Origin: an uncultured Pelagibacteraceae bacterium
Lineage (GTDB): Bacteria > Pseudomonadota > Alphaproteobacteria > Pelagibacterales > Pelagibacteraceae
Assembly: GCA_902612325.1 (NCBI GenBank)
Contig: CACMDB010000002.1
Coordinates: 154,893 to 218,892 of the forward strand
Length of the DNA stretch: 64,000 bases
Reading direction: 5' to 3'
Position numbers and translations under genes: made by a program. Shown here in pieces: positions 11,330 through 13,312 of the stretch; position 1 is the first letter of the stretch; each line of letters starts with the position of its first letter. The notes beneath the pieces were generated by a model. The model saw only the letters and a list, made by a program, of their open reading frames with translations. It did no database searches and was not told the origin of the DNA.

Positions 11330-12129
11330 TGTAGCTCCTTTGTAAAAGTAGAGATATACTTGCCCAAATTTGATGGCAAATCTTTGTCCTCCAAGTTATC
11401 CTGAATATACTTTACAAAAGCACTACCGACAATGACTCCTTGACACCCAGTATTAGCAATTTTTAAGGCATCTTTTGGAGATTTAATTCCAAATCCAGAG
11501 CAAATTGGCAATTTTGTAGACTTTTGGATTCTTTTTACAAAATTTGACACATCAATTTCATTAGCAGATTTATCTCCAGTTACACCTGAAACATTCACTT
11601 GATATAAAAAACCACTTGATATTTTAACTATATCTTTAAGTCTATTATCATCGGTTGTTGGAGCTATAAGTTTTATTAATGATAGATTTTTTTTATTTAA
11701 TTCCTCCCTTAAAATATTTTCCTCCTTTAACTCATGAGGTGCATCCACAACTAAACAAGCATCAGCACCCGCATCACTTATATCAGTAACAAATTTAGAA
11801 ATTGGATATTTATATAAATTAGCAATATAACCCATTAAAACAATCCCAACTTCTTGATTATAATTTCTAATTTCACCAACTAATTTAATTATATCTTTTA
11901 AAGTATCTCCGTTTTCTAAAACTTTATCATGGGCTATTTTTATGACTGGTCCTTCTGCAGAGGCTTCAGAAGTTGGATAGCCGCATTCAATTACCGATAC
12001 CCCATTATCAATTGCCTTTTTGATCAATTCCAAGCTTTTTTTATAGTCAGGATAGCATCCAACAAAATAAGCCACCAACTTTGTCTTTGGATTATTTGAC
12101 TGAAATATCTTTTTTAGTCTTTCACTCAA
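11317..12129 (-). CDS. trpA: Tryptophan synthase alpha chain (divergent active site)
   Basis: IECGYP, EGPVI, LIAPTT, GVTG, GFGI, GVIVGSA; follows trpB. Confidence 0.9.
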   Translation of the reverse strand: MSERLKKIFQSNNPKTKLVAYFVGCYPDYKKSLELIKKAIDNGVSVIECGYPTSEASAEGPVIKIAHDKVLENGDTLKDIIKLVGEIRNYNQEVGIVLMGYIANLYKYPISKFVTDISDAGADACLVVDAPHELKEENILREELNKKNLSLIKLIAPTTDDNRLKDIVKISSGFLYQVNVSGVTGDKSANEIDVSNFVKRIQKSTKLPICSGFGIKSPKDALKIANTGCQGVIVGSAFVKYIQDNLEDKDLPSNLGKYISTFTKELQRTG

Positions 12130-13312
12130 AATCTTTACCTATGTGTTCTTGAATTGTATCCAAATCTTTTTCGCCTCTACCACAAAGGGATAAACAAATT
12201 AGGTAATCTTTTGATTTACCTTTTGCTCGTTTAATAACTTCAGCTGCTCCAGCCATTGGTTCTAAAGCTGCAGAAATACCCTCAGTTTTTGCAATTAGCT
12301 TGTAAGCATCTAAAATTTCTTTATCTGTTGCAAAAGTATAATCAACAGCTTTCAAATTTTTAAGATATGAATGCATGGGTCCTACACTGAAATATTGAAT
12401 TCCAGCTCCTAGAGAAGAACCTCCTAAAGATTTAGAGCCATCATTAGATTGCAACATATATGTTTTCATACCCTGCATTATTCCTGGTGTTCCATTACTT
12501 AGTGCTGCTGTTTCAGCTGCCTCTACGCCAATTTTTTTTACACTCGGTTCATCTAAAAATTCATAAATACTACCTGCAAAATTTGATCCTCCACCCAGAC
12601 ATCCAACTATCATATCCGGAATTTTTCCTTCTTGAGCCATTGATTGTTCCCTGATTTCTTTGCCAATTATACTTTGTGCAAATGTAACTATTTTTGGAAA
12701 TGGTGCTGAGGAAACACACGATCCAATAATATATGCGTAATCAGGATTACTGGTCCAGGTTTTTATTGCAAATGTAATTGCCTCTTTTAATGATCCAGGC
12801 ACTGATTTTAACTTTGCTCCATAGTGTTTAGCTTTAATTATATTTTGATTTACCCTTTTGATATCAATCTCTCCCATCACTCCAATAAGTGGCATATTAA
12901 ATTTAGCAGCCACAGCCGCTGTTGCAGAATAATGTTGTCCAGCTCCAGATTCACAAATAAGATGTTTTTTACCCATTCTCCTTGCTAATAATATTTGGAA
13001 TAAACTATTATTAATCTTATGACTTCCTGTATGATTAAGATGCTCTTGTTTAAATAATATTTTTGCACCTCCTAAATTTTTTGTAAGATTTTCGGCAAAG
13101 TATAACGGTGATGGTCTTCCAATATAATGTTTACAATAATAAGCATATTCATCTAAAAAAGCTTGATCTTTAATTGCATCTTCAAAGCCTTTATTAAGTT
13201 CGTGTAAAGCTGGCATCAATGTTTCACCTACAGCCATGCCACCCATGGCATTTTCTCCCTCGCCATAGTATCCTAGTTCATCTGGTCCTGATTTAAGTGA
13301 ATTTTTAGTCAT
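12122..13312 (-). CDS. trpB: Tryptophan synthase beta chain (divergent)
   Basis: GRPSPL, HTGSHKINN (PLP Lys), ESGAGQH, GGGSN, ALEP, CGRGEKD. Confidence 0.9.
   Translation of the reverse strand: MTKNSLKSGPDELGYYGEGENAMGGMAVGETLMPALHELNKGFEDAIKDQAFLDEYAYYCKHYIGRPSPLYFAENLTKNLGGAKILFKQEHLNHTGSHKINNSLFQILLARRMGKKHLICESGAGQHYSATAAVAAKFNMPLIGVMGEIDIKRVNQNIIKAKHYGAKLKSVPGSLKEAITFAIKTWTSNPDYAYIIGSCVSSAPFPKIVTFAQSIIGKEIREQSMAQEGKIPDMIVGCLGGGSNFAGSIYEFLDEPSVKKIGVEAAETAALSNGTPGIMQGMKTYMLQSNDGSKSLGGSSLGAGIQYFSVGPMHSYLKNLKAVDYTFATDKEILDAYKLIAKTEGISAALEPMAGAAEVIKRAKGKSKDYLICLSLCGRGEKDLDTIQEHIGKDFE

Follow-up and report, generated by a model that had tools for sequence, protein, structure and literature searches.

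Tryptophan synthase β subunits of the TrpB1 type, represented by the Salmonella and E. coli enzymes (TIGR00263; EC 4.2.1.20; Protein Data Bank (PDB) code, 1k8x_B), are the closest described counterparts of the protein considered here, the product of the trpB gene in a 64,000-nucleotide stretch of DNA (the window) from an uncultured Pelagibacteraceae bacterium of the SAR11 lineage (contig CACMDB010000002.1). The gene is located on the minus strand at positions 12122-13312, starts with ATG, and encodes a TrpB1-type protein of 396 residues, 99-100% identical to the TrpB of uncultured Pelagibacteraceae single-cell genomes. It shares with the canonical enzymes the overall fold, the catalytic residues, and an overlapping, linked trpA, but differs from them in a set of otherwise conserved residues and in the deletion of two loops. 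In our assessment, with a probability of roughly 0.85, this gene represents the sole, functional housekeeping TrpB1 of Pelagibacter (SAR11 subclade I-like), producing L-tryptophan from L-serine and indole supplied by TrpA.

Further points of comparison include (i) the trpB_1 cluster of Kagan et al.; (ii) the reconstructed ancestral LBCA-TrpB; (iii) the TrpB2 paralogues; and (iv) the Salmonella βD305A and βR141A mutants. The first was reported in 2008 as a distinct cluster comprising P. ubique HTCC1062 and Sargasso Sea sequences (Genome Biol 9:R20; PMC2395257), and its authors conclude that HTCC1062, with one trpB and a trpE-G-D-C operon, carries a functional, single-copy gene. The existence of a divergent SAR11 trpB cluster and its functional interpretation are thus already known at tree level; the 2008 description took the form of a distance tree, and the residue-level account of D305, S377C, the deletions, and TrpA loop 2, as well as the selection analysis, come from the present work. 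LBCA-TrpB (5ey5_B) is the best PDB match both by sequence (363 bits) and by fold (template modeling (TM) scores, 0.91/0.94; root-mean-square deviation (rmsd), 1.2 Å; 49% identity), but this ancestor is consensus-like and carries every canonical motif, and its high score stems from its central position rather than from any particular kinship. TrpB2 enzymes (TIGR01415/PRK12391; 4qys and 6hte) have in common with the window TrpB the pyridoxal phosphate (PLP) fold-type II and membership in the tryptophan synthase β paralogue family; nevertheless, the window TrpB scores 78 bits against 4qys_B and 6hte_B and only 153-154 bits against the TrpB2 models, whose cutoffs are 519 and 366, and at 396 residues it is devoid of the TrpB2 insertions. 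The Salmonella mutants (Ferrari et al. 2001, 2003, summarized in PMC9512447) resemble the SAR11 enzyme in the absence of the D305-R141 salt bridge, but they are single laboratory changes in a canonical enzyme, whereas SAR11 TrpB carries about 20 other fixed changes; these, together with a co-diverged TrpA, may compensate for the loss.

The window TrpB is best filed as a TrpB1 and is clearly neither a TrpB2 nor a dehydratase. TIGR00263 is its best-matching model, with PRK13803 scoring equally through its TrpB half, and the Ser/Thr dehydratase equivalogs (IlvA, serine dehydratase) reach 20-44 bits against cutoffs of 331-801. In addition, PF00291 matches with 117 bits, all PDB sequence matches above 240 bits are TrpB, and the best 50 PDB matches in a fold search are TrpB throughout (TM score, 0.89-0.94; rmsd, 1.1-2.1 Å). 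The underlying AlphaFold2 model is confident (predicted local distance difference test, 91; predicted TM score, 0.91), with a dip only at residues 291-310, the D305 region. Most of the defining sequence features of TrpB1 are present; those in which the protein departs from the family are D305, S377, and the curated score cutoff.

The extent of the divergence was measured against a canonical set of 19 TrpB1 sequences (Salmonella, a Gastranaerophilales genome, and 17 diverse cluster representatives) that share 74 strictly invariant positions. The window TrpB alters 17 of these 74 positions and the other SAR11 copies 18-20, whereas in a leave-one-out test each canonical TrpB alters 0-7, with a median of 0, so that the divergence of the window TrpB exceeds chance. 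Identity to Salmonella TrpB is 37.6%; the median identity is 52% within the canonical set and 40% when its members are compared with the SAR11 copies. With TIGR00263, the window TrpB attains 388.0 bits, compared to 488-653 for the canonical proteins.

Residues kept and replaced

Residues are numbered after Salmonella TrpB, in a reference sequence identical to PDB 1k8x_B over residues 1-397. The gene and the elements discussed below, located by alignment and codon map, are as follows.

12122-13312, minus strand: trpB, tryptophan synthase β subunit, a SAR11-specific divergent TrpB1 (open reading frame (ORF); TIGR00263, 388 bits; PF00291)
13016-13021, minus strand: codons of H98-K99, equivalent to Salmonella H86-K87 with the PLP Schiff-base lysine, kept (codon map)
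12929-12952, minus strand: substrate-carboxylate loop E121-S-G-A-G-Q-H-Y128, equivalent to E109, T110S, Q114, H115, and G116Y (codon map)
12794-12799, minus strand: junction of a 3-residue deletion (Salmonella S161-G162-S163) in a loop of the communication (COMM) domain facing TrpA (alignment, codon map)
12752-12787, minus strand: COMM-domain helix 6 segment K176...T187, with K167 kept and C170I, N171T, E172F, R175K, D176T, and S178T (codon map)
12509-12517, minus strand: junction of an 8-residue deletion (Salmonella 259-266), followed by H267E and G268T beside the monovalent-cation site (alignment, codon map)
12386-12400, minus strand: I305-Q306-Y307-F308-S309, equivalent to L304I, D305Q, F306Y, P307F, and S308, with loss of the D305 latch residue (codon map)
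12248-12262, minus strand: E351-P-M-A-G, equivalent to E350 (kept), S351P, S352M, H353A, and A354G (codon map)
12182-12184, minus strand: C377, equivalent to S377C (codon map)

The catalytic core for PLP-dependent β-replacement is intact in the alignment. The residues kept comprise H86-K87, E109 (E121 in the window TrpB), Q114-H115, R141, K167, GGGSN 232-236 (240-244), E256, S308, and E350 (E351), and the Schiff-base lysine is invariant in alignment A1. On the other hand, a number of family motifs are rewritten: KREDL to KQEHL, RQSPNVFRM to RVNQNIIKA, NEALRDW to TFAIKTW, GPHP to SSAP, and AGLDFP to AGIQYF. Residue by residue, and besides the replacements given with the features above, these and other changes comprise R77Q, D79H, Q142V, R148K, M149A, G193S, P194S, H195A, Y279M, and F280Q; G116Y is encoded by TAT at 12929-12931, and the D305Q codon lies at 12395-12397. 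An earlier sequence-only reading of this stretch had listed the PLP-site and catalytic residues as retained (H86-K87, E109, GGGSN, E350) and the rewritten motifs, both deletions, D305Q, and the G116Y codon as changed; alignment and codon map bear out every item. To that list should be added Y16A, P18G, A108C, R321A, S377C, and D381E, as well as the conversion of ESSHA to EPMAG around 351-354 (S351P, S352M, H353A, A354G).

Several of the replaced elements belong to regions with a defined part in the Salmonella enzyme. We take P18, residues 161-181 (including COMM helix 6), and loop 2 of the α subunit to be subunit-interface elements, following the Salmonella structure, and C170, Y279, and F280 are presumed to line the tunnel, as in that enzyme. 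S377 is likewise assumed to hydrogen-bond PLP N1 in Salmonella TrpB; a neutral cysteine sits at the PLP-N1 position in some other fold-type II enzymes, and S377C may preserve the function there. The ligands of the monovalent cation are the backbone carbonyls of V231, G232, G268, L304, F306, and S308, and F306 and H115 flank the indole subsite (PMC9512447). In the cation-site region, G232 and S308 are kept, while the side chains change in G268T, L304I, F306Y, and P307F; the ligands, as stated, are backbone carbonyls.

TrpA has changed along with its partner. It keeps E49, Y175, G181, T183, G211-F212-G213, and G234, but its loop 2 is remodeled (F54T, D56E, P57A, D60E), and 11 of 36 conserved positions are altered, from which it follows that TrpA and TrpB diverged together. 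Position 60 is a Glu, as in Legionella TrpA (5kmy) and in Gastranaerophilales TrpA. The genes themselves form a compact unit with trpF:

13316-13939, minus strand: trpF, phosphoribosylanthranilate isomerase (ORF and profile matches)
11317-12129, minus strand: trpA, tryptophan synthase α subunit (TIGR00262, 204 bits against a cutoff of 102; TTG start)

The TTG start of trpA overlaps the end of trpB by 8 nucleotides, the usual sign of translational coupling, and 3 nucleotides separate the trpF stop from the trpB ATG; trpB is translationally coupled within trpF-trpB-trpA. Upstream of the trp genes lie pyrF, an ihfB/himD-like gene, and rpsA, and downstream accD and folC. A tblastn search of the 64-kb window with Salmonella TrpB and with the window TrpB matched the 12122-13312 gene only, disclosing no second trpB.

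Distribution in Pelagibacteraceae and beyond

Scanning GTDB with one genome for each species yielded 43 Pelagibacteraceae loci, including those of cultured HTCC9565, several HIMB strains, and complete nBUS genomes. Their TrpB proteins are 66-100% identical to the window copy and at least 62% identical among themselves. The reading frame is intact in all 43, and both deletions (that of S161-G162-S163 in 43/43) and the same motif changes are common to all of them. The sequence-only reading had named, as one of two findings that would speak against its interpretation, an already described presence of the same substitutions throughout Pelagibacter TrpB, and this is essentially the situation encountered: the substitutions occur in every Pelagibacter TrpB sampled, and the cluster itself has been known from a tree since 2008.

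The individual positions behave differently. H353A and Cys377 are found in 43/43 loci, Ser occupying position 377 in 19/19 canonical sequences; position 110 carries the conservative replacement by Ser in 42/43; and R141 is kept in the window and 42/43 loci, with Lys in L040. Position 116 is always aromatic (Tyr in 21, Phe in 17, Trp in 5). Position 305, an Asp in 19/19 canonical sequences, is Gln in 18, Thr in 19, Met in 5, and Asn in 1. The single exception at position 110 is a Phe in the complete genome of Pelagibacter nBUS_33 (L012; CEFGAGQHF), a single change of the TCT to TTT type that may be real or a sequencing error.

Outside this group, relatives are distant. When 1.84 billion cluster representatives were searched exhaustively with HMMER, the SAR11 cluster representative scored 784 bits and the next full-length protein 300 bits, with 45% identity; no relative outside the SAR11 cluster exceeds 46% identity in that collection, and a homologue search with the C-terminal 146 residues matched only short SAR11 fragments. 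By sequence, the SAR11 TrpB clade is an isolated long branch. Its individual traits recur elsewhere: the 259-266 loop is also gone in the otherwise canonical P0015, P0022, P0041, and P0053, D305 is replaced by Asn, Ala, or Cys in P0033, P0049, P0075, P0079, P0096, and P0127, and S377 by Cys in P0006 and P0084. The 259-266 deletion was accordingly rejected as a special marker, given its recurrence in otherwise canonical TrpBs; what is specific to SAR11 in these alignments is only the combination of loop deletion, D305 replacement, and S377C.

Two unusual groups of TrpB-like sequences were encountered in these comparisons. P0063 (L046, 1734-2894; Logan assembly of SRR27710297) resembles TrpB but lacks the Schiff-base lysine, with Ser-Cys at H86-K87, Ala at E109, and Asn-Asn at Q114-H115; both SAR11-type deletions are present and trpA follows directly, and the protein may be a pseudo-enzyme partner of TrpA. 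P0073, P0105, and P0136 display Trp where a conserved Gly is expected (for instance "WVEAGGEW" and "ETWAGQHW"); they most likely derive from organisms in which UGA is a Gly codon (genetic code 25), translated with UGA as Trp, and would then be database artefacts rather than G116W variants.

Function, selection, and alternative explanations

The functional assignment is anchored in HTCC1062. This strain grows in artificial seawater in which the only organics are glycine, glycine betaine, pyruvate, dimethylsulfoniopropionate (DMSP), and vitamins (PMC5069961), and since it grows without tryptophan and carries a single trpB, that gene must make tryptophan. For the predicted conversion of L-serine and indole to L-tryptophan, the single trpB and the growth of HTCC1062 are indirect evidence. 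Contigs from four marine metatranscriptome runs match trpB at at least 95% identity, a weak indication that the gene is transcribed in situ, as such contigs could be DNA carry-over; TrpB goes unmentioned in the proteomics supplements of PMC5069961.

Selection on the gene is strong. Pairwise ratios of nonsynonymous to synonymous divergence (dN/dS; Nei-Gojobori method, NG86), taken over 323 locus pairs with unsaturated dS, were compared for six syntenic genes; the median is smallest for trpB (0.07), followed by trpA (0.12), folC (0.15), accD (0.16), trpF (0.18), and pyrF (0.18); between the window and L003, dN for trpB is 0.011 and dS 0.46. Of the near-invariant positions, 25 are replaced, and 13 of these have settled, entirely or almost so, on one new state across the clade: P18G, A108C, T110S, Q142V, M149A, V156L, G193S, L304I, H353A, S377C, D381E, and the deleted G162 and G259. 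The low ratio within the clade combined with the fixed new residues indicates that the changes came in a burst along the stem branch, followed by a new state that is now strongly conserved. On this evidence, the stem branch of Pelagibacteraceae saw the replacement of about one-quarter of the near-invariant positions and the removal of two surface loops. Position 305, by its variability, looks like a site that lost a role rather than one that gained one.

Part of the divergence of TrpB probably reflects the sequence drift that runs through SAR11 genomes as a whole and their economy of composition. Divergence from family profiles is a general property of this genome, since neighboring proteins also fall under their equivalog cutoffs (RpsA, 385 against 577; IhfB, 71 against 115; thioredoxin, 81 against 97; TrpF, 111 against 216). 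Over the segment 8814-17287 (trx, folC, accD, trpF, pyrF, ihfB, rpsA, cmk), AccD as called is likewise under its cutoff, and PyrF, Cmk, and FolC barely pass. SAR11 TrpB contains 1.8% arginine against 4.6% in the canonical set, and 0.268 nitrogen atoms per side chain against 0.337. Nitrogen thrift was rejected as the sole cause, since of the 25 near-invariant positions that are replaced, no more than 3 lose nitrogen. AT bias was rejected as the sole cause as well: the AT-rich canonical P0005 and P0075 keep P18, T110, G116, Q142, H353, and S377, and some of the replacements, M149A and H353A (GCT in the window) among them, raise the GC content of the codon.

In the mechanism proposed here, indole from the co-diverged TrpA and L-serine would be joined to L-tryptophan at the divergent TrpB. 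The changed parts would be the allosteric elements of the Salmonella enzyme, namely (i) the D305-R141 latch, (ii) the cation-site region (the 259-266 loop, G268, and L304-P307), (iii) the interface between the COMM domain and TrpA loop 2, and (iv) the lining of the tunnel; S377 is changed in addition to these. The expected consequence would be a re-tuned or simplified α-β communication and cation dependence, not new chemistry. Removal of the D305-R141 salt bridge in Salmonella alters substrate specificity and displaces the equilibrium between open and closed states (PMC9512447), and, by comparison with that enzyme, re-tuned or simplified communication and cation dependence are most likely the state of SAR11 TrpB; the sequence-only reading had offered altered regulation as one outcome, and that part is a plausible proposal. 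A more specific version, advanced here tentatively and with considerable doubt, holds that the SAR11 enzyme is a latch-less α2β2 complex with a rebuilt cation site and a rebuilt α-loop 2/COMM interface, in which the control of channeling is qualitatively different, being simplified or independent of the cation, and β-elimination is perhaps raised; if true, such a side activity would be usable by a streamlined cell.

Several observations weigh against the assignment as a housekeeping tryptophan synthase. The window TrpB lies 4 bits under the curated TIGR00263 equivalog cutoff (388.0 against 392.45), other clade members scoring 350.5, 379.4, and 392.6, the last being the SAR11 cluster representative. 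RefSeq names the HTCC9565 orthologue (L033, 6001-7191; WP_169035974.1) only as a "pyridoxal-phosphate dependent enzyme". The membership of HTCC1062 in the clade rests on the 2008 paper (PMC2395257). Finally, the D305A and R141A mutants of Salmonella display a shifted distribution of intermediates and altered substrate specificity (PMC9512447), and by analogy a natural residue other than Asp at position 305 could accompany a changed substrate range.

Among the alternatives, the one that retains most weight, although it is unlikely, is a tryptophan synthase with a physiological side activity, an enhanced Ser/Thr β-elimination that would, for example, supply 2-oxobutyrate in a cell without threonine deaminase. 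HTCC1062 has been scored as lacking that enzyme (2026 preprint, 10.64898/2026.04.03.716430), yet it grows without isoleucine (PMC5069961); TrpB and threonine deaminase share the fold-type II superfamily, threonine binds TrpB active sites (PDB code, 5ixj), loss of the D305-R141 latch destabilizes the closed aminoacrylate state in Salmonella (PMC9512447), and the title of PMC8437039 reports multifunctionality of SAR11 enzymes. Set against these points are the 20-44 bits obtained with the dehydratase models, and the fact that tryptophan synthesis alone fully explains the strong purifying selection.

A different question, of origin rather than function, is whether an exotic TrpB lineage was acquired horizontally instead of diverging in place. 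The 2008 tree splits the cluster early from the other trpB_1 (PMC2395257), no intermediates occur between 46% and 62% identity, and the unrelated P0063 has both deletions. Nevertheless, acquisition is very unlikely, because (i) the trpF-trpB-trpA-accD-folC synteny is conserved, with neighboring genes recovered in 40-44 related loci, and linkage of trp genes to accD and folC is reported to be common in Sargasso Sea metagenome contigs (Table 7, PMC2395257); (ii) TrpA and the other neighbors are comparably divergent; (iii) no donor is identifiable among the 1.84 billion representatives; and (iv) the GC content around trpB is the same as that of its flanks, in a window of about 29% GC.

Improbable to a still higher degree is the neofunctionalized enzyme suggested as a possibility by the sequence-only reading, which would have kept PLP binding while its main reaction, no longer that of serine and indole to tryptophan, turned to another nucleophile or amino acid. 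The loss of D305, the residue in contact with the serine hydroxyl and the latch of the closed state, the Cys at position 377, the aromatic residue after H115, the changed tunnel residues, and the altered substrate specificity of Salmonella D305A (PMC9512447) would all accord with it. However, E109, which activates indole, and H115 and F306 (as Tyr), which flank the indole subsite, are kept together with the rest of the catalytic set, position 305 is unfixed among Gln, Thr, Met, and Asn, and trpB is tightly coupled to an intact trpA within trpFBA. Moreover, HTCC1062 holds a single trpB with a full trpEGDC and trpFBA set (PMC2395257) and is a tryptophan prototroph (PMC5069961). The proposal of altered chemistry is not supported.

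The same reading had judged the gene not to be in decay, and rightly so: although the replaced invariant residues are many, the score falls under the curated cutoff, and a K87-less TrpB-like protein (P0063) exists elsewhere, the idea of a copy in decay, or of a pseudo-enzyme, under relaxed selection is refuted to near certainty by a dN/dS of 0.07, the lowest of the operon, by frames intact in 43/43 loci, by kept catalytic residues and replaced residues that are themselves conserved (13/25 fixed or nearly so), by a confident AlphaFold2 model, and by the signs of transcription in situ.

Neighboring genes and implications

The start of accD, next to trpA, is atypical. The N-terminal part of the gene (11122-11395, minus strand) overlaps the trpA stop at 11317-11319, and the zinc-ribbon N-terminus has no ATG, GTG, or TTG start in the window. 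An ATG precedes the motif NW(I/L)TKIIK in L008-L035, whereas the window (11327-11329) and L001-L004 have an ACG. The 69 N-terminal codons are under purifying selection in the subclade, with 15 synonymous and 1 nonsynonymous differences against L001 and 33 and 5 against L003, which indicates translation from a non-canonical start, ACG or ATA at 11318-11320; translation of accD may be coupled to termination of trpA. The automatic ORF call gives a shortened AccD from the TTG at 11122, and the TIGR00515 match covers profile positions 71-284.

The window also holds a 16S-tRNA-tRNA-23S operon. A 5S rRNA was not found after the 23S gene, which ends at 49666, either at the gathering threshold over the whole window or at E≤1 over 49500-51500, and the GC content falls to 21-28% from 50 kb onward (49667-64000). 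Presumably, the missing 5S gene and the drop in GC correspond to HVR2, the hypervariable region that SAR11 genomes are known to carry between 23S and 5S.

To the cluster described in 2008, the present analysis adds the residue-level anatomy, the analysis of selection, the co-divergence of TrpA, and a consequence for annotation. The TrpB of Pelagibacter, the most abundant bacterium of the ocean, sits at the NCBIfam cutoff (350-393 bits against 392.45), and reconstructions of metabolism based on thresholds could wrongly call tryptophan auxotrophy. The vague RefSeq names of some copies arise because the clade straddles the TIGR00263 cutoff, while clade members nearly identical to HTCC9565 TrpB are named tryptophan synthase subunit beta. 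The clade represents no new kind of biology, but it may interest tryptophan synthase enzymologists and TrpB engineers as a natural experiment, in which the best-studied allosteric enzyme complex operates without the D305-R141 latch, with an altered PLP-N1 residue and an altered subunit interface, and still supports growth.

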